From Candidatus Omnitrophota bacterium (GTDB taxonomy: Bacteria; Omnitrophota; Gorgyraeia; JABMRG01; JAFGKX01), in NCBI GenBank assembly GCA_043797125.1, contig JAZDPX010000006.1:70921-134920 (forward strand): 64,000 nt of DNA, written 5' to 3'. A program made the translations under genes and the position numbers. Each line of letters starts with the position of its first letter. Position 1 is the stretch's first letter. Under the pieces are notes generated by a model. The model had not been told where the DNA came from. It was given only the letters and a program-made list of their open reading frames with translations, and did not search any database. Positions 3,428-63,185 of the stretch are shown piece by piece.

Positions 3428-3453
3428 GTAGCGCAGGCTTAAGCCTGCGCTAC
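3428..3453. repeat. Family A perfect palindrome GTAGCGCAGGCTTAAGCCTGCGCTAC (copy 1)
   Basis: 26-bp perfect hairpin. Identical copies are at 42733-42758 and 61727-61752. Confidence 0.8.
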
Positions 3454-8617: not shown

Positions 8618-8735
8618 TTTATCCGCCTTCCTTGCTTTTGAACTTCGTGGTAGATAACGTACGGCGGATAACCCGCCGTAGGCTATCTACTCCGAACTGC
8701 CCAATACACGAAGGCGGGCTATCTGGCATTCCTTC
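8618..8735. repeat. Family C composite GC-hairpin repeat (GGCGGATAACCCGCCGTAGGCTATCTAC ... ACACGAAGGCGGGCTATCT), copy 1
   Basis: It shares TTATCCGCCTTC, GAACTTCGTGGTAGATA, GGCGGATAACCCGCCGTAGGCTATCTAC and GAACTGCCCAATACACGAAGGCGGGCTATCT with 15378-15580. It overlaps the tsaB 3' end. Confidence 0.75.
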
Positions 8736-9867: not shown

Positions 9868-9965
9868 TATGGGGACGTTTCACTCCCAAGATTGGGAAGT
9901 GTCCCCTTTACCCCACTTCTATGCTCTGGGGACACTTTCCACGCTTGGGAGTGAAACGTCCCCTT
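9868..9965. repeat. About 95-bp nested inverted repeat between thiL and tsaE
   Basis: GGGGACGTTTCACTCCCAAG ... CTTGGGAGTGAAACGTCCCC forms a 20-bp outer stem around GGGAAGTGTCCCC / GGGGACACTTTCC. Confidence 0.75.
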
Positions 9966-14496: not shown

Positions 14497-14580
14497 AGTC
14501 TATGGTCTATGGTCGATGGTCGATGGTTGATGGTCGATGGTTGATTACCGACTATAGACTATCGACTATTGACCATCGAC
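14497..14580. repeat. Family E repeat (GGTCGATGG / GACTATCGAC direct and inverted units), between ricT and metG
   Basis: TCTATGGTCTATGGTCGATGGTCGATGGTTGATGGTCGATGGTTGATTACCGACTATAGACTATCGACTATTGACCATCGACTATT. A related copy lies at 29470-29545. Confidence 0.7.
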
Positions 14581-15368
14581 TATTTATTATAATCCACCTT
14601 CACGTGCCTGCCGTCTTCAAGCTCAACCGTAACAACGCGTTTTAAAAAATTAACATCCACTACCTTCCCTGTTTCGTTCTGATATTTTATCTTTTGCCCC
14701 GGGTGCGGCAGGCCCTTGGAAAGTTTCTTGTAATGGGTATGTTCGTATGACAGGCAGCACATAAGCCTGCCGCAAAGCCCTGAAATTTTTGCCGGGTTTA
14801 GGGGAAGGTTCTGGTCCTTTGCCTGTTTTATCGAAACAGGTTCAAAGTCCCTCAAGAAACTTCTGCAGCAAAGCATCCTGCCGCAAGGCCCGAAACCTCC
14901 GAGGATCTTCGCTTCGTCGCGCACGCCGACCTGCTTTAATTCAATCCTGGCCTTGAACATCTTTGCTAAGTCTTTGACTAATTCCCTGAAATCTATTCTT
15001 TCCTCAGCTGTAAAATAAAATATGATCTTGCTGCAGTCAAAAGAGAATTCCCCCTTGATCAACTTCATGTTAAGTTTATGCTGGATTATTTTACCGTCGC
15101 AGGTCTTCATGACCTCTTTTATTTTTTCGCGGTTTTCTTTTATTTTGTTTATGTCTGCCTGGTCGGCGATTCTAACTGCTCTTGGAAGCTCCTCTTTAAG
15201 CTTTTTTTCATCCAACACCAGCTCTGCCTCTGATAAAATCTGCCCGTAATCAAGGCCCCTGTCCGCTTCGATAATAACATACGCTCCGGGAAAAACATTT
15301 AAATCGCCTATGTCATAAACCTCTATCTTGCCGAATTCTCTCTGTCTTATCTGTATCGCTCTCTTCAT
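14580..15368 (-). CDS. ricT: PSP1 C-terminal domain protein RicT/YaaT
   Basis: Strong similarity pattern to B. subtilis YaaT: ...IFYFTAEERIDFRELVKDLAKMFKARIELKQVGVRDEAKILGGFGPCGRMLCC. Confidence 0.8.
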   Translation of the reverse strand: MKRAIQIRQREFGKIEVYDIGDLNVFPGAYVIIEADRGLDYGQILSEAELVLDEKKLKEELPRAVRIADQADINKIKENREKIKEVMKTCDGKIIQHKLNMKLIKGEFSFDCSKIIFYFTAEERIDFRELVKDLAKMFKARIELKQVGVRDEAKILGGFGPCGRMLCCRSFLRDFEPVSIKQAKDQNLPLNPAKISGLCGRLMCCLSYEHTHYKKLSKGLPHPGQKIKYQNETGKVVDVNFLKRVVTVELEDGRHVKVDYNK

Positions 15369-15377
15369 TGTCTATCC

Positions 15378-15580
15378 TTTATCCGCCTTCGCTGTTAATA
15401 AGAACTTCGTAGTAGATATGCTTCGGCGGATAACCCGCCGTAGGCTATCTACCTTCGCCAAGCAGCTTTCGCGCTTGGCTTCGGCGGATACGCCCGCCGA
15501 AGGCTATCTACACCGAACTGCCCAATACACGAAGGCGGGCTATCTACTACGAACCCACCCGATACACGAAGGCGGGTTAA
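15378..15580. repeat. Family C composite repeat, copy 2 (longer, with internal duplication), between holB and ricT
   Basis: Same modules as copy 1, with extra units GGCGGATACGCCCGCCGAAGGCTATCTAC and CACGAAGGCGGG repeated. Confidence 0.75.
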
Positions 15581-16428: not shown

Positions 16429-17056
16429 CTTTTGCTGCTTTCTGTATAAGCGCCTGTATCTGGTGGATACTGTTCTTTTGCGCTGAAAATACCATTATGC
16501 GCTTTTTGTCTTTTCTTGCAAGCGCCAGGTATCCGTTTCTTACCTTACAATGAAAAGATACAGGCCTTTTTTCTATTCTGTCAATAAAACCTTTGGCTGT
16601 TTTTGAACGTCCCAGGCCCAAGCGCGCCTCAATATCCAAGATAAACGTAATATCCGGCTTTATATTTCCGACACTAAAATTATTAATATTATCCAGAGCC
16701 TTTATGTCAAGGCCTAAGCCATATCCCTGATAAGCCAGTGTGGCGTCTGCAAACCTGTCGCATACAACTATCCTGCCGGATTCAAGGGCAGGTATTATTT
16801 TTTCCGATACAAGCTGTGCCCTTGCCGCGATATAAAGAAACGCTTCTGCCTTTGAGTCAATAGCTATGTTTTTTGATTTTAACAAAATAGTCCTTATAAG
16901 CTCGCCTAATTTTGTAGCGCCGGGCTCCCTAAGGTGCAGCACATTAAGCCTGCGCCTTTTTAAAAATGCGCAAAGCAGCTTCGAGTGCGTGGATTTCCCG
17001 CTTCCCTCCGGCCCCTCGAATGTAATAAATACGCCTTTTTTCATGCCGGCCGCCAA
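16400..17056 (-). CDS. tmk: Thymidylate kinase
   Basis: GVFITFEGPEGSGKST is a P-loop; the LID DRF motif is present. Confidence 0.85.
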   Translation of the reverse strand: MAAGMKKGVFITFEGPEGSGKSTHSKLLCAFLKRRRLNVLHLREPGATKLGELIRTILLKSKNIAIDSKAEAFLYIAARAQLVSEKIIPALESGRIVVCDRFADATLAYQGYGLGLDIKALDNINNFSVGNIKPDITFILDIEARLGLGRSKTAKGFIDRIEKRPVSFHCKVRNGYLALARKDKKRIMVFSAQKNSIHQIQALIQKAAKDAISRQYIR

Positions 17057-18441
17057 ACTGTACCCTCCTTAGTATCTTCTATTGCTATGCCTTTGGCCTT
17101 TAATTCCTGCCTTATCAAATCTGCCTTTTTAAAATCTTTGGAGTTTCTTGCTTTATTGCGTTCGCTTATCTTTGACTCAACATAAGTCTCTAGTTGTGCG
17201 TCTATCTGTTTGCCCCTTAAAAATAGGCCGAATATGCCGCCCAACTCTTTTATCAACGTCGCTGCATATAGCATGTTTTCATCCGATGATTTATTTGCCT
17301 CTCTAAGCATATCAAATAAACAAGCCAATGCCTGCGGGGTGTTGAAATCGTCGTCCATTGCCTCTATAAATTTTTCTTTAAGCGCGTCTATTTGGGCTGC
17401 CTGCCCCGCACCTGAACGAAGTGAATGGTGCGGGGTGGGCTCTAGTCTATTTACTTTATCAAATAATATATAAAACCTCTCAAGCGCTGCCTTAGCCTCA
17501 TTCATCCTCTCGTCGCTAAAATCTATGGGCTGGCTGTAATGGCTGCTGATCATAAAAAATTTGATTGTTTCCGCGTCGTATTTTTTCAAAGCAGCCTTAA
17601 TTGTTATAAAATTCCCTAAAGACTTTGCCATCTTTTGGCCGTTTATGGTCAACAGGCCGTGGTGTATCCAGTATTTTGCAAATGGTTTACCTGTGCGCGC
17701 CTCTGCCTGCGCAATCTCGTTTTCGTGGTGAGGAAATATCAGGTCCCTGCCGCCTGCGTGTATATCAAGCGTATCTGTCTTTAAAAACTTCTGGCTCATT
17801 ACAGAACATTCTATATGCCAGCCTGGCCTGCCGCCCCCCCAGGGGCTATCCCATGAAGGCTCGCCTTCCTTTGAAGTCTTCCATAACGCAAAATCCAGCG
17901 CATCCTGTTTTTTCTCATCAGGCTCAATGCGCACTCCCTCACGCATCTGGTCTATATTCTGCCCTGAGAGCTTGCCGTAACCGGAAAACTTCTTTACATT
18001 AAAATACACATCCCCGCCTGCTTTATAAGCATAGCCTTTGTCTATCAATACCTTTATATATTCGATAATATCAGCAATAGTCTTGGTTGCCCTTGGTTCC
18101 TCTTTATCTTTATCTAATATGCCTTTACGTATATTCAACAACCCTAAATCTTTGTTATAGCTTTCAATGTATTTACTAACAAGTTCTTTCCAATCAACTT
18201 TCAGCTCTTTGGCGCGGTTTATTATTTTATCGTCGATGTCTGTAATGTTGCGCACAAAATTAACCTTATAACCTCTATATTCTAAATACCGTCTCATTAC
18301 ATCGAAAACATAAAGGCTCCTGGCATGGCCTACATGAGACTCGTCATATACGGTTACCCCGCACGTATACATATTCACCGTCTTCGGCTTTATCGTCTCG
18401 AACTCTTCTTTCTTGTTTGTAAGCGAATTATATATTTTCAT
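17041..18441 (-). CDS. cysS: Cysteinyl-tRNA synthetase; carries an in-frame palindromic repeat insertion (family F)
   Basis: HIGH (HVGHARS) and KMSKS (KMAKSLGN) motifs are present. The insertion peptide LEPTPHHSLRSGAGQAAQ is encoded by the element at about 17395-17450. Confidence 0.9.
   Translation of the reverse strand: MKIYNSLTNKKEEFETIKPKTVNMYTCGVTVYDESHVGHARSLYVFDVMRRYLEYRGYKVNFVRNITDIDDKIINRAKELKVDWKELVSKYIESYNKDLGLLNIRKGILDKDKEEPRATKTIADIIEYIKVLIDKGYAYKAGGDVYFNVKKFSGYGKLSGQNIDQMREGVRIEPDEKKQDALDFALWKTSKEGEPSWDSPWGGGRPGWHIECSVMSQKFLKTDTLDIHAGGRDLIFPHHENEIAQAEARTGKPFAKYWIHHGLLTINGQKMAKSLGNFITIKAALKKYDAETIKFFMISSHYSQPIDFSDERMNEAKAALERFYILFDKVNRLEPTPHHSLRSGAGQAAQIDALKEKFIEAMDDDFNTPQALACLFDMLREANKSSDENMLYAATLIKELGGIFGLFLRGKQIDAQLETYVESKISERNKARNSKDFKKADLIRQELKAKGIAIEDTKEGTVWRPA
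17395..17450. repeat. Family F hairpin element inserted in-frame in cysS
   Basis: GGGCTGCCTGCCCCGCACCTGAACGAAGTGAATGGTGCGGGGTGGGCTC, with stem CCCCGCACC / GGTGCGGGG. It is flanked by GTCTATTT ... AGTCTATTT, a possible 8-bp direct duplication. Confidence 0.7.
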
Positions 18442-22940: not shown

Positions 22941-23048
22941 TTTAATTAAAAATTCAAAATTAAAAATGCAAAATTGCAATTAAAAATTTAAAATTTAAAA
23001 TTTTGAATTTTTAATTGTAATTTTTAATTTTACATTTTTAATTTTTAA
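22941..23048. repeat. Family B AT-rich palindromic repeat (AATTAAAAAT..AAAATTGCAATT..), copy 1, between mlaD and radA
   Basis: Long AT-rich dyad built from AATTAAAAATT / AATTTTTAATT and GCAAAATTGCA units. Related copies are at 30440-30556 and 44884-44960. Confidence 0.7.
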
Positions 23049-23049
23049 T

Positions 23050-23730
23050 TTATCTAATGCCTTTATCCTTATCCTCTTCTGTCTTCCTCGGCTCTCTTGG
23101 CTTGCTCAAAAGCTTCCAGGGGTTTTGCCTTATATCCTTGATCATCGCTTTTATATCTTCCGATATCTCTTCTATATTATTATATAATTTATCATCCATA
23201 AGCAGCTTGCCGACCGTACCTTCTTTTGCCTTTACCTTATCCAGGATGCCATTTATAGAATCCAGCATTGTTTCTATTTTAAGTATGACATCATAACCTT
23301 TTTGCGTCATCTTCTGCATCGAAACGGAATCAAATCCTATGATAACATCTCCGTCCTGCAAAACAGGGCTCTCGGGCGTGCCGGGAATTATCTCAACATA
23401 TTTTTCTCCTATAAGCCCCAATGTGTTTATAAGCACTGTGGCGTCCTTCTCAATCTTGGCATCATCAGTAAGCCACACCATTAATTCAACTTTTGTCTTT
23501 TTGGTCTCGGGGTCCTTAAATATACTAGTGCTTTTTACTTCTCCTACTTCGACACCGGCAACTCTGACAGGAGCCGCTATCTGAACGCCGTCGGCAAAAT
23601 TCAGGTGTATTTTTATATTGTATCCTGTTTTAAAGAGAAAATCCCCTATTGAAAAAACTACCATGGCAAGAAGTATAATGCCTACAAATACGAATATACC
23701 TATTCTTATTTCAAAACTATTCTCTTTCAT
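23050..23730 (-). CDS. mlaD: MlaD (MCE domain) phospholipid transport substrate-binding protein
   Basis: An N-terminal TM segment is followed by an MCE domain. Confidence 0.75.
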   Translation of the reverse strand: MKENSFEIRIGIFVFVGIILLAMVVFSIGDFLFKTGYNIKIHLNFADGVQIAAPVRVAGVEVGEVKSTSIFKDPETKKTKVELMVWLTDDAKIEKDATVLINTLGLIGEKYVEIIPGTPESPVLQDGDVIIGFDSVSMQKMTQKGYDVILKIETMLDSINGILDKVKAKEGTVGKLLMDDKLYNNIEEISEDIKAMIKDIRQNPWKLLSKPREPRKTEEDKDKGIR

Positions 23731-29469: not shown

Positions 29470-29545
29470 TTGGTCCATAGTCTATGGCCAATGGTCTATA
29501 GTAAATTATCGACCATAGACTATCGACTATTGACTATCGACTAAA
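29470..29545. repeat. Family E repeat, copy 2, between ilvE and mcsA
   Basis: GGTCCATAGTCTATGGCCAATGGTCTATAGTAAATTATCGACCATAGACTATCGACTATTGACTATCGACT uses the same units. Confidence 0.7.
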
Positions 29546-30439: not shown

Positions 30440-30556
30440 TGTTTAATTAAAAATTTAAAATTAAAAATGTAAAATTGCAGTTCAAAATTAAAAATTGTTT
30501 TAAATTTTGAATTTTTAATTGTAATTTTGAATTTTGCATTTTTAATTTTTAATTAT
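30440..30556. repeat. Family B AT-rich palindromic repeat, copy 2, between lolD and ilvE
   Basis: TTCAAAATTAAAAATTG ... CAATTTTTAATTTTGAA dyad centred on GTTTTAAA. It shares AAAATTGCA and TTTTAATTGTAATTTT with copy 1. Confidence 0.7.
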
Positions 30557-31274
30557 TCTCCAGCTTTCCATTAGCTAAATACTTGACATTCTTAAATAAT
30601 TTAGCATATTCACGCTCATGTGTCACTATAATAAAAGAACAATTTTTCTTACTGTTAAGCTCTTTAATCAACTCAAATACAGCCACAGAATTATCGTGGT
30701 CTAAATTACCCGTAGGCTCATCGCATAATACTATATCGGGTTTATTCATCAATGCCCTTGCTATTGCCACCCTCTGAGACTCCCCGCCTGAAAGTTGCGA
30801 CGGCCGGTGGCTGGTTCTCTTTTCGAGCCCAACCGCGCTTAAAAGCTCCTGCGCCCTTTGCTTTGGGCTTTGGGCTCTGTGCTGTGGGCTGCCTGCCCCG
30901 TATCCGAGCGAAGCGAGTGGTGCGGGGTGGGCTCCAATCAGCGCGGGCATCATAACATTTTCCAAAGCGGTAAATTCGCCAAGCAGGTTGTAAAACTGGA
31001 ATACAAATCCAATGCGTTCATTGCGTATCCTGCTTATCTTTGCATCATTCATCTTATATACAGAGGCGCCGTCTAGCAGGACCTCGCCTTTAGTCGGTGA
31101 ATCCAAAGCGCCGAGTATATGAAGCAGCGTGGACTTGCCGCAGCCTGATGGCCCGAATACCAGCATTATCTCGCCGGCACAAAGAGAAAGATCTATTCCG
31201 TTCAATACATGCAACTTGCGGCTTCCGTCCTGATATACCCTGTGCACGTTTTTCGCGGCTAAAATTTCACTCAT
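30549..31274 (-). CDS. lolD: Lipoprotein-releasing ABC transporter ATPase LolD; carries an in-frame repeat-derived insertion
   Basis: Walker A (GPSGCGKST), signature (LSGGESQRVA) and Walker B are present. The insertion GAHPAPLASLGYGAGSPQHRAQSPKQ is encoded by the heptamer tract plus family-F hairpin at about 30858-30945. Confidence 0.8.
   Translation of the reverse strand: MSEILAAKNVHRVYQDGSRKLHVLNGIDLSLCAGEIMLVFGPSGCGKSTLLHILGALDSPTKGEVLLDGASVYKMNDAKISRIRNERIGFVFQFYNLLGEFTALENVMMPALIGAHPAPLASLGYGAGSPQHRAQSPKQRAQELLSAVGLEKRTSHRPSQLSGGESQRVAIARALMNKPDIVLCDEPTGNLDHDNSVAVFELIKELNSKKNCSFIIVTHEREYAKLFKNVKYLANGKLENN
30858..30947. repeat. Heptamer tract plus family F hairpin inserted in-frame in lolD
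   Basis: CTTTGGGCTTTGGGCTCTGTGCTGTGGGCTGCCTGCCCCGTATCCGAGCGAAGCGAGTGGTGCGGGGTGGGCTCC. The GCTGCCTGCCCCG...GGTGCGGGGTGGGCTC part matches the cysS insertion. Confidence 0.7.
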
Positions 31275-35250: not shown

Positions 35251-35319
35251 TTAAATATACAACACAAGCACCAAAAAGTCAAGGGTTTTCTATGCTCTAT
35301 GCACTATGCTCTTTGCTGA

Positions 35320-39430: not shown

Positions 39431-42142
39431 GTGTCTGTGAATAAGATGAATAAGATATTAAAGATTGGCATAGTGATATATGTAATTATAGTAATAGTCT
39501 ACCTTTCTGTTTGGTATATCAACCGCACCCTTGTTCCCTATAAACTGCAGGACTATATCGTAAGCTCAATCGCTCAAAAAACGCCTTACGCCATAACAAT
39601 AGAAAAAACCACCTTCAGCTTATCTAAAGGCATTGCGCTAAAAAATATTCAAATCACCGACAAACTTAACCCCTCGAAGCCTATTCTTTCAGCAGCAGGC
39701 GCGCATTTCAGAGTGATACCGATTCCAAGCCTGCGCGGAATAAAAATACTCATCCCTTCTATTTCTCTTGAATCACCTCAAGCGTCTATTGAAAGAACCG
39801 CCGACGGGCTGTGGCAATTTCTTCCTGCGGATGAAATGCCGGCAAAGGCTAACGGCAATTTATCTGTGCTGGGCATAACTTTTACAGATGCGAGCGTATC
39901 TTTTGTTGATAATTACAAAGAATTAAATTTTCGCCGCAATATTAACGGCTTAAAAGGCAGAATAAGGTTATCGCTGCCTAATTCCGTAAGTTTCGCGGTT
40001 TCTGGAATTATCAACGACTTAAAAAAACATGATGAGGAATTCAGCGCCTCGGGAGGCTATCATTTTATTCAAAAGAGGATAATAGCCAACGTGGATATAA
40101 AAAATGCTTCTCTCGCAAACTACACAAACGCATATTTAAATCTTGAGAATTTCAAAATCTCATCCGGAATTTTTGATATTAACGCAAGATTTACCCTTAA
40201 CGACAAAAAACAATTACTATCAAACGTTAAATTTGACTTTAAAGATGCTAAAGCTACTATGGGGACTGCTGGTATAAACGGCGCAGGCAAAGTAAGCGGG
40301 ACCTTTTCGTATGAACTCGGGCATATAGATACATTGAATTATAATTTCGACTACGATGTAAAAAATTTACAATTAGTCGCGCCGCACCCTATTGTTGACA
40401 GCTTTTTTATAAGAGAATCCTCGGGAAACCTAAACAACGAGTTGTGGAAAATAAAAAATCTGATAGGCAACGTTTATGACGGGCCGATAATTTTAAGCGG
40501 CACGATCACCAGCCCTTTAAAAGACCCGAAAGCGAAATTAAGAATTACTTCCGAGGTAAAGCTTAAAAAAATCAAGGGTTCTTCTGCGGCCGGCGTTAAG
40601 GACGGCATTGCCAAAATCAGCGCTGATATAGCGCCAAAAGGCGAGAACGGCCATCTTATTAGAGGGACTGTAAATATAAAGGCGCTTAAGTTTGAAAAAG
40701 AGGGGCGCCTTCTTGAAGGGGATTTTGATATATATGGCCACATGGAAATAGGCGCCCAGGCCAAAAGCATATCCGACTACAAAGGCAATATTGTATTCAA
40801 TAACGCAAAGATACGCATATCAGAAATACTGCCCCTAATCTATGGCGCAAAAGGTAAAGTGCTTTTCTCGACCAATGCATTGTTAATAAAAGATCTCACG
40901 GGATACGCCGGGGATGCAAAAATAACTTCTGACGGAAAACTGGATTATTCCCTCCAGCCACCTGCCATAGAGATAAATGCCTATACAGAAAAGATGGTTC
41001 TAAGCAAGTTGCTGGAAAGCCTGCCCGAATCCATGAAGCAAAGATTATCAAAAATAGAAATAGCCGGCTTTGGCGACTTAAATTTGAGCATACGTAATTC
41101 TAAAGATGACCCTGATACACTGGTATATCAGGGTGAATTAAAAATTGAAGATGCCGTCGTCGGCATGCCATGGCTAAAGGAAAAAATAAACGGCATAAAC
41201 TGCGAATTGATTTTTGAAAAGGATGCTTTGACGTGGAATAAATTAACCTGCATGTATAAAAACGAACAATACATATCAAGCGGTACTGTCGTAGAACTAA
41301 ATTCTCCCTTGATAAACGCTGCCTTGGAATCTAAAGATTTTAACCTAAAAACTACATTAAAAATTCATGATGACTACCTGGATATACAAAAACTGGATGC
41401 TACATATAAAAAATATTCTTTTTTTGCAAAAGGCTATGTGCAGGACTTCAAAAAACAGCCCATTGCAAACCTGCTCATCAATGCTTATGACGGAACCGCA
41501 GAGGTAAATGCAAAGGTAAACCTGGAATCTGAAGACAAGCCGTATCTTGTAAGCATAGCCGCAAAAGATATCAATATTGAAAAACTGATTCCGAATGAAA
41601 ACCCGAACCAGCCCAGTAAAATGAGCGGAAACCTCGCATTAACCGCTACTCTAAACGGGTATCTGAATGACAGAAATTCTCTTAAAGGCGGCGGCTGGCT
41701 GCAGGTAAGCGGCGGCTATCTTGGCAGGTTTCCTGTTATTTTTGCTTTTTTAGACGCGATTCTCGGCATACCGCCTGAATACCTTATACTTACAGATGCG
41801 TTTGGAAATTTTTCAATTTTCGATAACAGGATTCATACAAACGATTTTAAGGTATTAAGCCAGAAGGCCGCGCTTCTGTGGCAGGGGTCTTTAGGCTTCG
41901 ACGGGACGCTCGATTTTAATGTAACGGGAAGATTCGCGGGAGATATAATAAAAATGACGAATTCATTAGGCAAGATTGCATCTGCGGTCCTTGACGAGGC
42001 AGGCGCGTATATTGTTGAGGCAAAACTGACTGGCACGCTGAAGGAGCCAAAATACAGCATTGTGCCTTTTCCGATAAAAAAGATTTTAAACGAGAAGGTC
42101 GTTGATAAGGTTAAAGATATATTCGGAGATATTTTCCAATAA
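39431..42142 (+). CDS. AsmA-family / TamB-like outer-membrane biogenesis protein
   Basis: 903 aa with one N-terminal TM anchor and a long beta-rich periplasmic region with AsmA-like repetitive composition. It is the only substantial plus-strand gene. Confidence 0.55.
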   Translation: MSVNKMNKILKIGIVIYVIIVIVYLSVWYINRTLVPYKLQDYIVSSIAQKTPYAITIEKTTFSLSKGIALKNIQITDKLNPSKPILSAAGAHFRVIPIPSLRGIKILIPSISLESPQASIERTADGLWQFLPADEMPAKANGNLSVLGITFTDASVSFVDNYKELNFRRNINGLKGRIRLSLPNSVSFAVSGIINDLKKHDEEFSASGGYHFIQKRIIANVDIKNASLANYTNAYLNLENFKISSGIFDINARFTLNDKKQLLSNVKFDFKDAKATMGTAGINGAGKVSGTFSYELGHIDTLNYNFDYDVKNLQLVAPHPIVDSFFIRESSGNLNNELWKIKNLIGNVYDGPIILSGTITSPLKDPKAKLRITSEVKLKKIKGSSAAGVKDGIAKISADIAPKGENGHLIRGTVNIKALKFEKEGRLLEGDFDIYGHMEIGAQAKSISDYKGNIVFNNAKIRISEILPLIYGAKGKVLFSTNALLIKDLTGYAGDAKITSDGKLDYSLQPPAIEINAYTEKMVLSKLLESLPESMKQRLSKIEIAGFGDLNLSIRNSKDDPDTLVYQGELKIEDAVVGMPWLKEKINGINCELIFEKDALTWNKLTCMYKNEQYISSGTVVELNSPLINAALESKDFNLKTTLKIHDDYLDIQKLDATYKKYSFFAKGYVQDFKKQPIANLLINAYDGTAEVNAKVNLESEDKPYLVSIAAKDINIEKLIPNENPNQPSKMSGNLALTATLNGYLNDRNSLKGGGWLQVSGGYLGRFPVIFAFLDAILGIPPEYLILTDAFGNFSIFDNRIHTNDFKVLSQKAALLWQGSLGFDGTLDFNVTGRFAGDIIKMTNSLGKIASAVLDEAGAYIVEAKLTGTLKEPKYSIVPFPIKKILNEKVVDKVKDIFGDIFQ

Positions 42143-42732: not shown

Positions 42733-42758
42733 TAAGATAGTAGCGCAGGCTTAAGCCT
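42733..42758. repeat. Family A palindrome (copy 2), between rph and rdgB
   Basis: Identical 26-mer. Confidence 0.8.
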
Positions 42759-42789
42759 GCGCTACTACTATACGCTATCGACCATCTTT

Positions 42790-43512: not shown

Positions 43513-44026
43513 ATATGTTCCTCCCTTTGGTATCTATTCCCACAATTACCGGAAAATCCTCAACCTTCAACTTGTAAATTGCTTCCGGGCCAAGGTCTGT
43601 GTACGCTATTTGTTTGGCAGACTTCACCCTTAACGCCAGATATGCGCCTGCTCCTGCAGGCGCGACAAAATATACGCCCCTGTATCTTTTTATGGCATTT
43701 AGCACTTCCTTGGAGCGATTTCCCTTTCCTATCATGCCAAGCAGGCCTTTGGATAAAAGCATTGGGGTAAATTCATCCATTCTTTTGGACGTGGTTGGCC
43801 CGCATGCGCCTATTGGTTTTCCCTTTGGCGCAGAAGTCGGGCCGCAGTAGTAAATTATTTGCTCTTTTATATCTATGGGCAACTTTTTTTTCTTAATAAT
43901 GCATTCGCACGCTCTTTTATGAGCAGCATCGCGCGCTGTGTATATAACCCCTGAAAGCAAAACCTCGTCTCCCGCTTTAAGTTTCGCGGCATCTTTCCTT
44001 GTAATCGGCAGCATTATCCTTTTCAT
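43502..44026 (-). CDS. Class I fumarate (or L-tartrate) hydro-lyase beta subunit
   Basis: Fe-S hydro-lyase beta-type subunit pattern (...[20 protein letters not shown]...); it pairs with the alpha subunit upstream. Confidence 0.75.
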
Positions 44027-44877
44027 ATTATAACCTCTGCGCTACGGAGAGCATGGCAGCATACATTCACGCAAACCGGCAGACCAGCAATGTGCGTCGG
44101 ATATGTTAATATGTTGACTCCAAGGCAGGTTGTCCTACCGCCTAAGCCCATGGGGCCGATGTTTAGACGGTTGATTTCCGTCAACAAATCTTTCTGTAAT
44201 TTTGCTGTGAGCTTTGAGCTGTGGGCTGTGGGCTGTGGGCTGTGGGCTGTGGGCTCAAGGAGCGCTTTCTTTGCCAATAGACAGGCGTAATCTGCGGTCC
44301 CGCCTATGCCTACGCCTATGATATACGGCGGGCAGGCATCCGCGCCTGCGCATTTAACAACTTCGACAATAAATTTTTTAATCTCGCCGATTCCAACAGT
44401 TGGATTAAACATCTTTAGCTTAGTCTTGTTCTCGCTTCCAAAACCTTTTGGCATTACTGATATTTTTATTTTATCGCCGGATATGATATCGTAGTGTATG
44501 ACTGCCGGCGTATTGGTGTTTGTATTTTTTCTTACCAAGGGATCATCCACTACAGATTTTCTTAAACATCCCTGTTTATACGCTGCTTTTATGCCATTAT
44601 TTATTGCCTTGCTTACATCGCCTATGATCTGTACCTTATTGCCTATTTGACAAAATACTACTACCATACCTGTATCTTGGCATATCGCTATTTTTTGGCA
44701 CCTAGCAATACAGGCATTCTCAATTAATATCTTAAGCATCTTTTTAGCAACAAGCTTTGTTTCGGTTTTAACCGCTTTTTTTAAAGCAGATAAAACATCG
44801 CCGCGTAAATTAAAATTCGCCTTTAACGCCGCCTCACACACCTTTTTTTCTATCTCTTTCACCTTTATTTTTCTCAT
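44023..44877 (-). CDS. Class I fumarate (or L-tartrate) hydro-lyase alpha subunit; contains an in-frame (GCTGTGG)n-derived insertion
   Basis: Fe-S hydro-lyase alpha region (...CQDTGMVVVF...). The PTAHSPQPTAHS insertion is encoded by a heptamer tract at 44205-44260. Confidence 0.75.
   Translation of the reverse strand: MRKIKVKEIEKKVCEAALKANFNLRGDVLSALKKAVKTETKLVAKKMLKILIENACIARCQKIAICQDTGMVVVFCQIGNKVQIIGDVSKAINNGIKAAYKQGCLRKSVVDDPLVRKNTNTNTPAVIHYDIISGDKIKISVMPKGFGSENKTKLKMFNPTVGIGEIKKFIVEVVKCAGADACPPYIIGVGIGGTADYACLLAKKALLEPTAHSPQPTAHSSKLTAKLQKDLLTEINRLNIGPMGLGGRTTCLGVNILTYPTHIAGLPVCVNVCCHALRSAEVII
44205..44260. repeat. Heptanucleotide tandem repeat: GCTGTGG x5 perfect, 7-mer periodicity over 8 units, inside the fumarate hydratase alpha gene
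   Basis: GCTGTGAGCTTTGAGCTGTGGGCTGTGGGCTGTGGGCTGTGGGCTGTGGGCTCAAG. Confidence 0.8.
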
Positions 44878-50194: not shown

Positions 50195-50232
50195 AACAAC
50201 GATTCGGTAAACGGTACCGGTTTTACGCTGCC
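50195..50232. repeat. Family J shared 3' element (…CGATTCGGTAAACGGTACCGGTTTTACGC[T/C]GCC) at the end of the 998-aa gene
   Basis: The 30-bp core is identical to 53421-53450. It contains the CGGTACCG palindrome and supplies the …AA* stop. Confidence 0.7.
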
Positions 50233-53219
50233 TGCGCTATTACATTTTCATTACGGCTGTTTTTGTTGAGCTTCTCCGTCTGGTTATAATATATAAGCGG
50301 ATCCTTAAGATATTTCGTATAATATTCCGGGCCAAACTTTACAGGTTCTGCCGGTTCTAAAATATCATTAATAAGCTGCTCTATAAATTGCGGATTGGGA
50401 ATCTTGTCGCCGTTTGCGGCAATAAATTTTATAATTTTTCCCATTTCACTATTTATAATGCTTCCGTGTTTTTTCATTACAAAATGCACAACCATATGAT
50501 AGTACCAATCAGCGTACATGTAGCGGATGGGCAAATAAACCGTAAACCATATATAATGAATGAGCGCGCAATACCTCGGGTATTTTCTAAGTTCAGCCGG
50601 TGCGGGAAATTTTTTCACTTCGTCAAGATTATCCCATTGCAGCTTTTTTAGGGCTTCGAGCTCAGGGACATCGAGGCTGCCGAACATTTCTTTATATTTT
50701 TCTGGTTCATATTTTTTTACATCCGATATCATATATAAAAGCTCATCTATATTCATGTCGGCAAAGTAATCAGCCTTACTTCTGTATCCGACAAGGTCCT
50801 CCAAACGGTGGGCGATTAAAAACTTTTTTATTAACTCGAGCGGCATTTGTTCGCCTTTGGAATTCCGGGGATATTTTGCCAGCCATTCTGGGGTATAAAG
50901 CATATTTTCAATAAATCTTGCCATACCCTCCTTCATTCTTGTGTCGCACGAAGCAAACGTCGGCCCCTCTCTGTAATCAGAATAGAGATGGTCAATCGCG
51001 TGTCCCGACTCATGAAACATCACCCATGCGGTTAACCGACCACCTGAGGCAAGCGTAATTATAATTCGCGTATCTTTCTCGCCAAGCGCGCAGCATACTC
51101 CGGGATGTTTAAACCTCCCTGTCTCCGTTTTTCTTGAGTCTGAGGGGTTTGTATCAAAGTATATCATTTCCGCGTCTAAACCGAGGTCTTTTAAAGTTTC
51201 CAGAAACATACCCATAAGTTTGTTCGCGGGAAGATATTCATCCACCTCTTTATAAACATCTCGCAGGGCCCAACTTGTGTTCCAGGGCGCCGGTTCAAGC
51301 TCAGCACTTTCTTTTTTAAGAAGATCGGCAATCTCTTGGTCAGCTCGCTTTATGTCATCTTTCAAATCAACTTTCATCTGCTTCATAAAACGCTTATACT
51401 CATCGAAATCAGCTCTTTGAACTCGAGCTTGTAATTGATGATAATTGGTAAGAGACGGGATATTGTACTTTTCAGCCACCAACTTGGTTGCCTCATTTTG
51501 CAAATCTTTCACTTGTTCTTTTCGCGGTTCAAATGCCTCTGCGCGCCACATCCAAAGCATATATGCCCATTCTCTCAACTCTTCTTTAGGTTCAGTTTCG
51601 AATATCTCAAGTATGTTATTATCGCCTACCGGCCTTGCTTTAAATGCCGTGGATATCACATTATATATCGCGTCTTTCTTTTTCCAATCTTTTTCCTCAT
51701 TTAATATACTAAGAACTTTTTTATCATCCGCGATTTCCTTTTTCCCCTTGTAGATATTCGATATTGATGTATACAATTTTTGCTTTTTTTTTGCATCGTT
51801 ATTGCTTGCAAGCGTCTCGCTGGCCTCATCATTATCCACGACTGTCCCGCTAGCCCGGGATAAGAGCAGATATGCTTCTCTTTTTTTGATTTTGTCTTTT
51901 GCCTTATCCAATACATTGAATGCCATAGAATTGTTTTTAATATATTTGCCTCTGAAAAATGTCGATATATACATATATGCTTTGCACTTTTTCACTTTAT
52001 CAGGGTCATCTGATAACAAAGAAAGCGTGTCTTTCTTATATATGGCCTTCCCATAGAGCTTGTATAAAAAATCATATATCTTTCCTAGTTCTTTCCTCCT
52101 GCCCTCTTTTTGCAACTCCTCCATCGCCTGGTTTGCCGCGACAGGACTATTAATTCTTTTAGTGCCCGTAAGCCAGGATATAATTTTATACATTTCCCAT
52201 TTTTTTATCTCGCTGGTTTCGGCTGTTAACAGCTTTTTAACATCGTTGTCGTCATAAATAAGCGGGCCGCCATAAATCATAGGGAAACTCATATAATCTG
52301 CATCCATTGTGTTTTTAAACGTCGATACTGGAGGGCTTTCCTCAACCTGGCTTAGCAAAAGCGAGTCGAAAAGATCCTCATACTTTCTTTTAAGATAATA
52401 TTCGCTAACCAGCTTTGAATACGCTAAGACCTTTTTAGATAAGGTTTCGTCTGTAACTATTTTTAATATTTCCTTTCCGATTTCAGCGTATTTCTTAGCG
52501 GTAGCCTGCGCCAACTCTTTATCACAAGTAAACATGGGCTGTTCTTCGTATAACCTGCTTTCACGCCAGGTTTCACCCCAGTTGGCACCGAAACGCTTTC
52601 TTTGAAGGAGCATCTCCTTTTCTTCCTCGCTCAATGTGGCTAAATATTTTTCATACTCCTGTTTACTTCCTTCAAATTCCCCGATAGCGCTCATTAACCG
52701 AAACTGAACAATACCATGCTCTATACCTTTATTGTATAATGGCAGGTAAGCCTCATCAAAAAATTTGCGCGCGGATTTTTCCAAATCTCTTTTCTTGAGT
52801 ATGCCGTTTGGAAATATATCTTTAATGCACTGGGCATATTGCAGGATATCTTGCTGTTTTTCTTTTTCCTTTATTGCTCTGCTCTTAAAAAACTTCGACA
52901 CATTGCTGTTTTTTAGTGATATTTCTTGCTTTAATGGCTCGCCCTTTTTTCTCGGCAGTTTCGACAGCGCGACAATCAACTCCTGCGCCAAGGCAATATT
53001 CTCCGCTTTTTGCTGGTCGGGCGCCTCTTGGCGCATATCATCATATTTCTTTTTCAGCATATCATATGTTATAGAATCTTTGATAAACGATATGGGCCGC
53101 AAAGCGGAAGAATCGCTGTTTGTTCTGGTGCATATTTGCGACTTTTGGAAAGCTAGCTGGTTGGATAAAAAGACAGTTGCTAATAATAATGATGATATTC
53201 TCTTTATAAGTATTTTCAT
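50223..53219 (-). CDS. Large exported HExxH protein (putative gluzincin-type metallopeptidase); LRP motif family
   Basis: 998 aa with a signal peptide followed by ...SDSSALRPISF. The HExxH site is MFHESGHAIDHLY with a downstream Glu (MKEGMARF). The C-terminal ...QAA* and the stop are contributed by the family-J repeat. Confidence 0.55.
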   Translation of the reverse strand: MKILIKRISSLLLATVFLSNQLAFQKSQICTRTNSDSSALRPISFIKDSITYDMLKKKYDDMRQEAPDQQKAENIALAQELIVALSKLPRKKGEPLKQEISLKNSNVSKFFKSRAIKEKEKQQDILQYAQCIKDIFPNGILKKRDLEKSARKFFDEAYLPLYNKGIEHGIVQFRLMSAIGEFEGSKQEYEKYLATLSEEEKEMLLQRKRFGANWGETWRESRLYEEQPMFTCDKELAQATAKKYAEIGKEILKIVTDETLSKKVLAYSKLVSEYYLKRKYEDLFDSLLLSQVEESPPVSTFKNTMDADYMSFPMIYGGPLIYDDNDVKKLLTAETSEIKKWEMYKIISWLTGTKRINSPVAANQAMEELQKEGRRKELGKIYDFLYKLYGKAIYKKDTLSLLSDDPDKVKKCKAYMYISTFFRGKYIKNNSMAFNVLDKAKDKIKKREAYLLLSRASGTVVDNDEASETLASNNDAKKKQKLYTSISNIYKGKKEIADDKKVLSILNEEKDWKKKDAIYNVISTAFKARPVGDNNILEIFETEPKEELREWAYMLWMWRAEAFEPRKEQVKDLQNEATKLVAEKYNIPSLTNYHQLQARVQRADFDEYKRFMKQMKVDLKDDIKRADQEIADLLKKESAELEPAPWNTSWALRDVYKEVDEYLPANKLMGMFLETLKDLGLDAEMIYFDTNPSDSRKTETGRFKHPGVCCALGEKDTRIIITLASGGRLTAWVMFHESGHAIDHLYSDYREGPTFASCDTRMKEGMARFIENMLYTPEWLAKYPRNSKGEQMPLELIKKFLIAHRLEDLVGYRSKADYFADMNIDELLYMISDVKKYEPEKYKEMFGSLDVPELEALKKLQWDNLDEVKKFPAPAELRKYPRYCALIHYIWFTVYLPIRYMYADWYYHMVVHFVMKKHGSIINSEMGKIIKFIAANGDKIPNPQFIEQLINDILEPAEPVKFGPEYYTKYLKDPLIYYNQTEKLNKNSRNENVIAQAA

Positions 53220-53344: not shown

Positions 53345-53452
53345 TTCGAAGTTATTCGGGACAGTGTCCTGTTTCTGTTCGGGTAGCTGTTTCCCGAACA
53401 GCTTTGGGACAGCTTCCCGAACGATTCGGTAAACGGTACCGGTTTTACGCCG
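53345..53452. repeat. Family J element, copy 2, at the end of the MFS gene, with adjacent GTTCGGGAAACAGC / GCTGTTTCCCGAAC-type inverted repeats
   Basis: AACGATTCGGTAAACGGTACCGGTTTTACGCCGCCCGC. Upstream of it is TTCGGGTAGCTGTTTCCCGAACAGCTTTGGGACAGCTTCCCGAAC. Confidence 0.65.
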
Positions 53453-54644
53453 CCCGCATTTTCCTGGAGTATATAAGCGTCGCTATTATGCAGCATACGC
53501 CGCCGAAAAACAGGGTACTGGGCGCGCCGATTTTGCCTGCTAAAAATCCCGCTAACAAGCTGCCGAACGGCGCCATGCCTATAAACGCCATGGTAAAAAG
53601 GCTCATGATCCTGCCGCGCTTATCTTCCTCCACGACAGTCTGTAAAACCGTATTGCTCGCCGCCATCTGAACCATTAACGCGAAGCCTGCGGCGAATATA
53701 ACCGCCATTGAAAACCACAAAACTTTTGATAAGGCAAACACAATAATCCCCAATCCGAAAATTCCCGAGGCTATCGCTATTATTTTATGTAAACCTGCAA
53801 CGCCTTTTCTGCGGGCAAGGTAAATGGCGCCCGTCAAAGCGCCTGCGCCGGCTGCTGCCATAAGAAAGCCGAGTGTTTCAGGCCCTTTGTGAAAAATATC
53901 CTTCACAAAGACAGGCATTAATAACTGGTAAGGCGCGCCTAATAAACTCGCCGCGCCAAGCAGAATAAGAACTGCCCTTATAGGGACGAAGTTAAAGGCG
54001 TAAACAAAGCCTTCTTTCAAATCCTGCAGTATATGCTTATCAGATGGTATTATTGCCCTGGGGGTAACATTCATCGCCAATAAAGCTATAATAGCGGCTA
54101 TATAGCTTGCTGCATTTAACAAAAAACATGGGCCCTCGCCAAATGCCGCGATTATTATGCCCGCGATTGAAGGGCCTAGAAGCCGAGCGACATTGACCAT
54201 CGAAGAATTTAACGCTATGGCATTGCCCAGGTCTTCCTTTTTCCCTATCATCTCAACGGTAAAAGCCTGCCTTATAGGCATGTCAAAGGAATTCACCACG
54301 CCAAGAATTACGCTTAGCGCTATAATATGCCATATCGCCACGATATCCGCCAGCACAAGCACTGCCAATACCAGCGCCTGGATCATCGCAAGTATCTGCG
54401 TAACTACCAGAATACGGTGCCGGTTGTATCTGTCGGCTATAACTCCCGCCAAAGGCATCAATAAAAAAGCAGGCAGCTGGCCCATAAACCCAACGATACC
54501 CAGCAGCAATGCGGAGTTCGTAAGCCTGTAAACCAGCCAGCTCATGGCAATCTGCTGCATCCATGTGCCGATTAAGGATATACCCTGGCCTATAAAAAAT
54601 AAGCGGTAGTTTCTATATCGCAATGCCCTAAATAAAAATTTCAT
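53445..54644 (-). CDS. MFS transporter (EntS/YbdA-like efflux family)
   Basis: 12-TM pattern with ...LFFIGQGISLIGTWMQ... Confidence 0.7.
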   Translation of the reverse strand: MKFLFRALRYRNYRLFFIGQGISLIGTWMQQIAMSWLVYRLTNSALLLGIVGFMGQLPAFLLMPLAGVIADRYNRHRILVVTQILAMIQALVLAVLVLADIVAIWHIIALSVILGVVNSFDMPIRQAFTVEMIGKKEDLGNAIALNSSMVNVARLLGPSIAGIIIAAFGEGPCFLLNAASYIAAIIALLAMNVTPRAIIPSDKHILQDLKEGFVYAFNFVPIRAVLILLGAASLLGAPYQLLMPVFVKDIFHKGPETLGFLMAAAGAGALTGAIYLARRKGVAGLHKIIAIASGIFGLGIIVFALSKVLWFSMAVIFAAGFALMVQMAASNTVLQTVVEEDKRGRIMSLFTMAFIGMAPFGSLLAGFLAGKIGAPSTLFFGGVCCIIATLIYSRKMRAA

Positions 54645-54720
54645 TTTTTTCCGTGAAGCTCTAAACTACTCACTTGCCCCAAACCACTCGCTGCTTCGCA
54701 GCTCGGGTTCAGGGCACTTA

Positions 54721-54791
54721 CCACTCACAAAAATTTGGAATGGCCTGCCACGAACCCGAACAAAAATTTAAAAAAGAAATTTTTGTGAGTG
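54721..54791. terminator. Long hairpin immediately 3' of the tmRNA (CCACTCACAAAAATTT … AAATTTTTGTGAGTGG)
   Basis: Perfect 16-bp inverted repeat, 40 bp apart, directly downstream of the tmRNA CCA end on the transcribed strand. Confidence 0.45.
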
Positions 54792-54796
54792 GTTCG

Positions 54797-55233
54797 TGGT
54801 GGAGGCGAGGGGAATTGAACCCCTGTCCTTGAGCGTTCAGCAATAGGCGCTACATGCTTGTCCTGTGCTTTGAATTCGCCCCGATAATCTTGCATAGGCA
54901 CAATCTCATCGGGACTAGCTTTTAAAAATCTCATCCTGCTCTCTAAAAGCTAAAAAAGCGGGACCAGCCTATTAATGACGCCAGACCCGGGCTAAATAGG
55001 CAAACCCGGCTGACGGTAGCCGCGTATTAGGCGGCTAGCGGCATCATGGAAACCATTCCTGTGTTAACAGGAACAACTTCCATGACTTTAGCGCGAATTG
55101 TATCCGCACTTATCATGTAGTCGGCTTTTGCTCCTCGCTTTCGCTCGGAGTCCCTTACGGGACAAGGCCAACCGACCAACCTTGGCATGCTCCTAGTTGC
55201 CCAATCGCATCAAGTCGAACCCTGTTCGCCCCC
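54797..55233 (-). ncRNA. ssrA: tmRNA (SsrA)
   Basis: The minus-strand 5' end GGGGGCGAACAGGGTTCGACTTGATGCG pairs with the 3' end ...GGACAGGGGTTCAATTCCCCTCGCCTCCACCA to give a tRNA-like acceptor/T-arm with CCA. It lies immediately downstream of smpB. A candidate tag ORF ends ...MMPLAA-UAA at about 55026. Confidence 0.8.
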
Positions 55234-55239
55234 ATTTGT

Positions 55240-55305
55240 GTATTGAGTATTGAGTCGTGAGTATTGAGCACTCAATACTCAATACACACGACTCACGACT
55301 AAACA
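55240..55305. promoter_or_regulatory. Imperfect palindrome of GTATTGAG / CTCAATAC units between smpB and ssrA
   Basis: GTATTGAGTATTGAGTCGTGAGTATTGAGCACTCAATACTCAATACACACGACTCACGAC. It could be the smpB terminator and/or ssrA promoter region. Confidence 0.4.
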
Positions 55306-61726: not shown

Positions 61727-61752
61727 CGTAGCGCAGGCTTAAGCCTGCGCTA
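61727..61752. repeat. Family A palindrome (copy 3), between gspF and the HExxH gene
   Basis: Identical 26-mer with flanking CG. Confidence 0.8.
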
Positions 61753-61772
61753 CGTTTATAGATGATCGACCA

Positions 61773-63039: not shown

Positions 63040-63185
63040 CATAGCTGAAGTTAGAGTATCAGATGATCAGATTACCAGAACAGGATTATCAGAGTATCAG
63101 AGTATCAGATTATCAGAATTTTATCTGATACTCTGATTCTCTGATGTTCTCGTTCTGATACTCTGATTCTCTGATGTTCTAATAC
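63040..63185. repeat. ATCAGA/TCTGAT-rich direct and inverted repeat region between gspE and gspF
   Basis: ATCAGAGTATCAGAGTATCAGATTATCAGAATTTTATCTGATACTCTGATTCTCTGATGTTCT...GATACTCTGATTCTCTGATGTTCT. It contains a dyad and a 24-bp direct duplication. Confidence 0.7.

Follow-up and report, generated by a model that had tools for sequence, protein, structure and literature searches.

Rickettsia palindromic elements (RPEs) are 105-146 bp long and form a long stem-loop with terminal inverted repeats (TIRs) of about 12 bp (PMC2229807). Each RPE family encodes one conserved peptide, and RPEs also occur in the transfer-messenger RNA (tmRNA) gene (PMC2229807, PMC10969869). [quoted passage not shown] Repetitive extragenic palindromes (REPs) are imperfect, multicopy palindromes of 20-40 nt that form strand-specific single-stranded hairpins and sometimes inverted doublets (PMC3116915, PMC3733652); they are extragenic, with GTAG or CGTC as the tag of one end (PMC3733652). 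RAYT transposases mobilise REP/REPIN elements. Small dispersed repeats (SDRs) have been reported only in Nostocaceae (PMC5861425). Here we describe a hairpin repeat of about 50 nt that lies inside cysS and lolD in a 64-kb stretch of DNA from a metagenome-assembled genome (MAG) of Candidatus Omnitrophota; this whole stretch is called the window below.

The repeat is a new family of a known kind, which works like the RPEs and the intragenic ERIC and Correia MITEs without being a member of them, and its unusual traits are the very small size, the translation in two frames, the replacement of a native loop, the heptamer context and the strand-asymmetric pairing. With a probability of roughly 0.7 we regard it as a lineage-restricted family of very small GC-rich palindromes, a non-autonomous selfish or mobile DNA that is tolerated in coding loops. 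Judged from sequence comparison the family appears to be mobile, as near-identical copies occur in unrelated genes, relatives lack them, a second genome of differing composition has them and the reading frame is a matter of indifference.

Copies of the hairpin

The two copies found in the window and their host genes are as follows.

17394-17443, minus strand: element copy 1, in cysS, 64.3 bits with the covariance model
30886-30935, minus strand: element copy 2, in lolD, one base out of register compared to copy 1, 60.6 bits with the covariance model
17041-18441, minus strand: host gene cysS, cysteine--tRNA ligase (CysRS) of 466 aa, E = 1e-136 to solved CysRS
30549-31274, minus strand: host gene lolD, LolCDE-type ABC ATPase of 241 aa, E = 6e-62 to Escherichia coli LolD

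Both copies are within a 55-nt direct repeat (17393-17447 and 30885-30939) in which 47 of 55 positions (85%) are identical and all eight differences are transitions. An earlier note on this DNA had described a palindromic repeat of about 50 bp inside cysS and lolD; the DNA similarity was reproduced, and the stem CCCCGCACC/GGTGCGGGG is present in both copies. Each hairpin arm occurs exactly twice in the 64 kb, whereas the expectation from shuffled sequence is 0.85 for one arm and 0.08 for the other. The copies have 68-74% GC compared to 42% in the genome and form a strong hairpin of 50-55 nt, with RNA folding z-scores of -5.6 and -4.4 on the plus strand. In gene sense the cysS copy reads GAGCCCA / CCCCGCACC-ATTCACTTCGTTCA-GGTGCGGGG / CAGG / CAGCCCA. 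The conserved core of 38 nt is A-CCCCGCACC-ACTCACTTCGTTCG-GGTGCGGGG-CAGGC, and the length comes to about 50 nt when the heptamers on either side, GAGCCCA and CAGCCCA, are included. Its hairpin has a 9-bp stem on the sense strand and a 14-nt loop, and on the antisense strand the stem reaches 14 bp including G.U pairs. Both host open reading frames (ORFs) are intact across the element, as the earlier note had said.

New carriers were found by a protein-database search with six-frame translations of both window copies. In the dTDP-4-dehydrorhamnose reductase RfbD (P0123, MFH0732526.1, on a 174 kb contig) there is AHPAPFTSFRCGAGSP, the exact translation of the cysS DNA copy in the lolD frame. Very probably this rfbD copy belongs to the same MAG, since its accession is in the series of MFH0731427 and MFH0731440: the window CysRS is 100% identical to MFH0731427.1, encoded on a 159.8 kb contig, and MFH0731440 is a further window protein. 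A queuine tRNA-ribosyltransferase (Tgt; P0121) from another organism, in a JGI metagenome, is encoded by DNA of 52.5% GC (L013) and carries two tandem 43-nt units, of which unit 1 gives TPHHSLRSGAGQA in the cysS frame and unit 2 gives HPAPLTSFGCGAGAA in the lolD frame; as 43 mod 3 is 1, the frame moves by one between the units. The core identity is 36/38 between cysS and tgt unit 2 and 32/38 between cysS and lolD. Directly 5' of the tandem copies (L013 293-335) lies a different hairpin repeat, CCTTCGACAGGCTCAGGGCCGTCCCGAGCTTTTGTCGAGGG, which encodes PSTGSGPSRAFVEG in frame. The three hairpin units in this tgt all have lengths that are not multiples of 3, and their total net gain is 41 residues.

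Two diverged copies were detected next to the tmRNA gene of the window.

54797-55233, minus strand: tmRNA gene, Rfam match
54738-54807, minus strand: diverged copy at the tmRNA gene, nhmmer match 54743-54803, E = 3e-4
54669-54724, plus strand: more diverged, inverted copy, profile match about 54678-54716, nhmmer E = 0.16

The nhmmer DNA profile was built from four sequenced copies, and the E-value of 3e-4 predates the adding of the tmRNA-side copy to any model. That copy reads CCACGAACC-ACTCAC[24-nt AT-rich insert]TTCG-GGTTCGTGG-CAGGC, with a left arm that begins with the CCA end of the tmRNA, and relative to the in-gene copies its stem carries two changes, on both sides, of C-G to A-T. The two tmRNA-side copies are about 15-20 nt apart and form an inverted doublet. 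An integrated island at the tmRNA gene was considered and rejected, as the next gene encodes an MFS transporter and none of the 10 Pfam-scanned window ORFs is an integrase. A further copy, in a JGI metagenome (L009), has both 14-nt arms identical to the window copies around an unrelated, AT-rich loop, and is located in a long intergenic region between convergent genes. Five of the eight known copies are inside genes, all five in the same orientation relative to the host gene.

An exhaustive covariance-model search added no copy in the window, and about 52 kb of three syntenic relatives had none. The 22-base arm pattern had four isolated matches among 185,579 species-representative genomes, a set outside which the source MAG falls; these are in unrelated high-GC genomes and were taken as chance. 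In JGI metagenomes the same pattern yielded one related intergenic hairpin (L005/L009), and the other matches were GC-rich DNA (0.52-0.70) sharing arm bases only. Among those matches, L008 and L012 have a common hairpin variant of their own, TGCCTGCCCCGCC...GGCGGGGTGGGCGGC, repeated just upstream of start codons (L008 536-588, L012 743-791 and 1244-1296); the organism is unrelated, with 57% GC, and the hairpin has the arm motif of the studied element including the tandem wobble step. Plasmids and phages gave no blastn match to the element. The tmRNA was the sole match in an Rfam scan of the window, and permissive Rfam scans of both window copies produced only a 15-bit miRNA match against a 69-bit threshold. 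A CRISPR repeat was discarded as a candidate, as there is no array and the loop is 14 nt.

Repeats are known to cause misassembly in MAGs, and the pattern could be an artefact of assembly or binning, for example of chimeric joins between repeats. This is hardly credible, as three host ORFs are uninterrupted and can be aligned with homologues over their whole length, to either side of the element, and an independent JGI assembly has the same core in tgt.

Two reading frames, replaced codons and heptamer tracts

The element starts in codon phase 1 in cysS (GAG CCC ACC CCG) and in phase 2 in lolD (GGA GCC CAC CCC), and one DNA is accordingly read as LEPTPHHSLRSGAGQAA in cysS (frame a) and as GAHPAPLASLGYGAGSP in lolD (frame b). 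Frame a is used in cysS, where the copy encodes CysRS residues of about 333-349, EPTPHHSLRSGAGQAAQ, and in tgt unit 1; lolD, rfbD and tgt unit 2 are read in frame b. The similarity is therefore kept at the DNA level and not at the protein level, and the "similar peptides" of the earlier note are the same DNA translated in different frames. Both peptides are rich in Pro, Gly, Ala and Ser and superficially alike, as would be expected of a peptide module conserved by selection on the protein. Such a module is refuted by the use of different frames, with Tgt holding both side by side, and its probability is next to nil; homology of the peptides at the protein level was discarded for the same difference in frames. 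Moreover, a 23-position profile of the frame-b peptide, which scores known carriers at 45-50 bits locally, matched only translations of unrelated repeats and not one true carrier in 1.84 billion cluster representatives, a result explained by carriers being hidden behind representatives without the element. All three sense frames are free of stops in each of the four sequenced in-gene copies, which random 50-mers achieve with a probability of 0.39 at the composition of the element and 0.055 at that of the genome. GC-richness keeps all sense frames open and thereby allows tolerance in two frames, and since the same DNA is tolerated in both, in-frame tolerance needs no conserved peptide.

According to the earlier note, the canonical enzymes have no residues at the positions of the element. 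This holds for LolD, whose loop behind PALIG in the ABC helical subdomain exceeds that of E. coli LolD by 15-16 residues and those of other solved LolD, MacB and MJ0796 homologues by 12-17; the foreign DNA in lolD is nevertheless 78 nt long. Compared to solved homologues, RfbD has about 20 extra residues after the GIDVR segment, near residue 32, and Tgt has 45 residues where the solved homologue has 4. For CysRS the claim failed, as all 59 aligned Omnitrophota orthologues have a variable linker at the position of the element, of similar length in most and of 18 residues in the closest orthologue on a long contig (P0003). In cysS, 18 native linker codons have become 18 element codons with no net gain. 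The site is free of the element in three syntenic relatives; their orthologous linker DNA is AT-rich and unrelated to it. The unchanged linker length together with the unrelated linker DNA of the relatives indicates that the element replaced a native linker, and the alignment of orthologues thus bore out an insertion, with net gain, in LolD but not a simple one in CysRS.

An AlphaFold model of CysRS built from 56 sequences had a mean pLDDT of 89.8, with block means of 63 and 71 for the element residues. The element is predicted to be a coil (332-344) between the helices 310-331 and 345-363 and is the sole poorly modelled stretch of that region, and in the model its position matches a tolerated surface loop. 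The single-sequence model of LolD (pLDDT 37) was unusable.

The earlier note had also proposed an 8-bp target-site duplication (TSD) in cysS, for which the flanking repeats are these.

17386-17393 and 17445-17452 (span 17386-17452): two GTCTATTT 8-mers, 59 nt apart

A shared 8-mer within 10-12 nt brackets only 0.07-0.14% of random 49-nt segments of the window. A spacing of 59 nt is not a multiple of 3, and deletion of the 59-nt unit from cysS gives ...AAT AGA CGC GCT TAA and hence stops translation too early. The residues encoded by the two 8-mers (N-R and I-D), which are read in different frames, are conserved in orthologues, and no comparable repeat flanks the lolD and tgt copies. A simple insertion with duplication at cysS is thus excluded.

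The GAGCCCA and CAGCCCA heptamers bracket both window copies of the hairpin, and longer heptamer tracts, as called by Tandem Repeats Finder (TRF), lie beside the lolD copy and in a third gene.

30857-30891, minus strand: heptamer tract that continues the lolD copy, in gene sense CAGCCCA CAGCACA GAGCCCA AAGCCCA AAGCAAA; TRF period 7, 4.4 copies
44201-44263, minus strand: array of heptamers, in frame within a class I fumarate hydratase-like gene (44023-44877); TRF period 7, 7.4 copies, 93% matches

In gene sense the second array is GAGCCCA (CAGCCCA)x4 CAGCTCA AAGCTCA CAGCAAA, encoding EPTAHSPQPTAHSSKLTAK. It opens with GAGCCCA, as the hairpin copies do, and although it is 56 nt long its net gain is only 5 residues compared to the solved homologue 7xky. 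The lolD tract is 86% identical to the end of this array. Since the hairpin is bracketed by heptamers that continue into an array, it looks like a module within a heptamer-array element. Arrays of period 7 or 8 number 13 in the 64 kb, about four times the density of the syntenic relatives L014 and L015, and the density in L009 is similar. In most intergenic gaps of more than 70 nt there is a long hairpin with a tandem array of heptamers or octamers as one arm and the complementary array as the other (14498-14583, 22944-23051, 29471-29543, 30445-30554, 35289-35317, 55236-55285 and 63053-63175), with a unit that varies by site, such as (GTCGATG)n/(CGACTAT)n and (AATTAAA)n/(AATTTTT)n.

The lengths of the replaced and added stretches also bear on how the element arrived. 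Hairpin and heptamer modules could have been written into loop-coding DNA without a transposase, by template switching, microhomology-mediated repair or gene conversion with other copies as donors, so that a native stretch was replaced instead of an insertion with fixed ends taking place. Such copying and overwriting would account for the even exchange of codons in cysS, for the small gains in the fumarate hydratase-like protein and LolD compared to the length of their foreign DNA, and for units of 43, 50 and 56 nt, none a multiple of 3, when every net length change is one. The improbable 8-nt microhomology around the cysS copy and the common start and end of the lolD and fumarate hydratase tracts fit it as well. 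However, insertion followed by selection for shorter loops leads to the same end state, the loop alignments do not place the junctions with single-base precision, neither a donor-recipient pair nor an intermediate was seen, and RfbD and Tgt look like plain net insertions. We consider this route rather unlikely.

Under the selfish or mobile reading that we prefer, copies would land at unlinked sites, including the loop-coding parts of cysS, lolD, rfbD and tgt (two copies). Survival inside a gene would depend on the lack of stops in any sense frame and on the encoded coil, rich in Pro, Gly, Ala and Ser, and only those events would be retained that alter the length by a net multiple of 3 in a length-tolerant surface loop. 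The peptide would be a passenger, and the frame used would be whichever leaves the host gene open. The ragged junctions hint at imprecise or recombinational insertion and not at cut-and-paste with a fixed TSD. Together with the odd unit lengths and the lost native codons, they are better fitted by overwriting, or by insertion and loop trimming, than by cut-and-paste with fixed ends.

Pairing on the antisense strand

Pairs were counted over seven copies. Standard pairs make up 89.8% of cells on the antisense strand of the host genes, a share that drops to 40-53% when the partners are slid by 1-3 columns, and of the 11 inner pairs 10 are formed in every copy. On the sense strand 73.5% of cells pair, and the wobble positions of the antisense strand are mismatches there. 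Three stem pairs have changed on both sides, and every one-sided change is a G.U wobble on the antisense strand. A tandem U.G/G.U step adjoining the stem is kept in six of the seven copies, being U-A/G-C in the seventh. For the two window copies, RNA folding gives -35.9 and -44.5 kcal/mol for the plus strand and -25.1 and -23.0 for the minus strand; with DNA parameters the values are -15.9 and -16.3 against -14.1 and -10.6. Pairing is thus systematically better on the antisense strand, which hints at a single-stranded intermediate; the events are few, and mutation bias could also produce the difference.

The hairpin could instead be a functional single-stranded cis-element on the antisense strand, either a structure formed by antisense RNA or single-stranded DNA bound by a protein such as an HUH or tyrosine recombinase, with its location in genes being secondary. 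The pairing bias, the G.U nature of the one-sided changes with the kept tandem step, the stronger folding of the plus strand, a 14-nt loop that is nearly invariant between the two genomes and the shared orientation of the five in-gene copies all speak for such a function. On the other hand, the asymmetry comes down to seven one-sided changes, all of them sense-strand G-to-A, and five copies of the same orientation are not statistically decisive. The element has no Rfam family match, the L009 copy keeps the arms around an unrelated AT loop, and relatives do without the element at the same sites. With no T-run after the stem on either strand at the in-gene copies, the hairpin is not an intrinsic terminator, a candidate which was likewise rejected. 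On balance a functional cis-element seems improbable to us.

Several observations weigh against mobile or selfish DNA as the explanation. The copies known amount to eight in total, from part of the MAG and from other contigs. A Pfam scan covering 10 of the 68 window ORFs revealed no transposase, RAYT or integrase, and no TIR or TSD signature is consistent among the copies. The cysS copy and the fumarate hydratase tract replaced native codons with little or no net gain, where simple insertion predicts otherwise. No polymorphism of occupied and empty sites was seen within a species, the nearest relatives being about 70% identical in CysRS. Finally, identity between the genomes (36/38) is at least as high as within the genome (32/38), and this, with the conserved loop and the strand-asymmetric pairing, could reflect functional constraint instead.

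A more speculative possibility is that the hairpin and the heptamer arrays are two products of one DNA-writing process, which would act on a single-stranded intermediate of the antisense strand and overwrite short stretches, some of them in the loops of essential genes, with no need of TIRs, TSDs or a transposase of the conventional kind. We would give this long odds. The process could be the same as the one that links the STRR heptamer arrays and SDRs of Nostocaceae, and would then occur in a second phylum unrelated to theirs.

Relation to described repeats

The window has 42% GC, and its gene map is otherwise housekeeping-like in appearance. The minus strand carries 64 of the 68 ORFs of at least 70 aa, an extreme strand bias, and the GC skew is negative in every 2-kb bin except 40001-42000, which places the window inside one replichore with genes co-oriented with replication. 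Other repeats were also observed in it. A 26-nt perfect palindrome with a GTAG tag, GTAGCGCAGGCTTAAGCCTGCGCTAC, occurs three times between genes (3428-3453, 42740-42765 and 61728-61753), and as this tag is typical of REPs, a RAYT-type system may exist elsewhere in the genome. Segments of 50-53 nt (for example CCCGCCGTAGGCTATCTAC...CCCAATACACGAAGGCGGGCTA) are repeated with 90-96% identity at gene boundaries (8640-8724 and 15402-15579), with an extra 37-nt tandem copy at 15502-15576. A 38-nt repeat of 95% identity (AACGATTCGGTAAACGGTACCGGTTTTACGC...; 50198-50235 and 53420-53457) lies at the 3' ends of two minus-strand genes, one a 998-aa ORF without a Pfam match and the other encoding an MFS transporter. 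At 9871-9963, in a 113-nt intergenic gap, there is an inverted repeat with 36-nt arms (92% complementary) and a 21-nt spacer.

Like the RPEs, the element is palindromic, lies in frame in conserved housekeeping genes (cysS, lolD, rfbD and tgt are all open across it), is tolerated as loop peptides and is also found between genes. RPEs occur in the tmRNA gene, and here a diverged copy abuts the 3' end of the tmRNA. The comparison made by the earlier note with the RPEs therefore stands for a dispersed palindrome in frame in housekeeping genes, strengthened by the rfbD and tgt copies. Membership in that group was not borne out by size (a core of 38 nt, about 50 nt with flanks, against 105-146 bp), by the reading in two sense frames where an RPE family has a single peptide, or by phylum. 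Judged by the RPE descriptions, the element is further set apart by being GC-rich in an AT-rich genome, by its occurrence in Omnitrophota and not Rickettsia, and by replacing codons of cysS.

With ERIC and Correia elements it shares being a palindromic repeat translated as an in-frame fusion in conserved genes (PMC2229807, PMC10969869). The constant-length TSD of MITEs is absent, as only the cysS copy is flanked by a direct repeat (8 nt) and those in lolD and tgt by none. The element is without TA ends, no parent IS was seen among the 10 Pfam-scanned window ORFs, and the hairpin arms could serve as TIRs. In its 38-nt core, 9-bp stem and 14-nt loop it falls within the size of REP/REPIN palindromes, and the inverted doublet beside the tmRNA gene is also REP-like. 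In contrast to REPs, no copy has GTAG or CGTC adjoining the stem, and five of the eight copies are inside protein-coding genes.

In the account of Elhai et al. (2008; Genome Res 18:1484; cited in PMC3116915 and PMC5861425), cyanobacterial SDRs are reportedly 21-27 nt long, located in or beside tandem heptamer (STRR) arrays, and possibly mobile with no known enzyme; they are said to be very small and to lie occasionally inside conserved genes. The present element, too, is associated with heptamers, which bracket it and from which the lolD copy runs into a five-unit array. It differs from them in size (38-50 nt) and in the phylum of its host, and SDRs of Nostocaceae appear to be the nearest analogue in size and heptamer link. 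Our literature search found no report of such repeats in Omnitrophota.

Selfish palindromes that lie in frame in essential genes are best documented in Rickettsia, and the family described here would be an independent and much smaller case from an uncultivated, free-living phylum. Elements of this kind inflate the apparent divergence of proteins and create spurious motifs common to unrelated metagenomic proteins. The co-occurrence with heptamers, the strand asymmetry and the replacement of codons may make it a second system, besides that of Nostocaceae, in which the movement of very small repeats can be studied.

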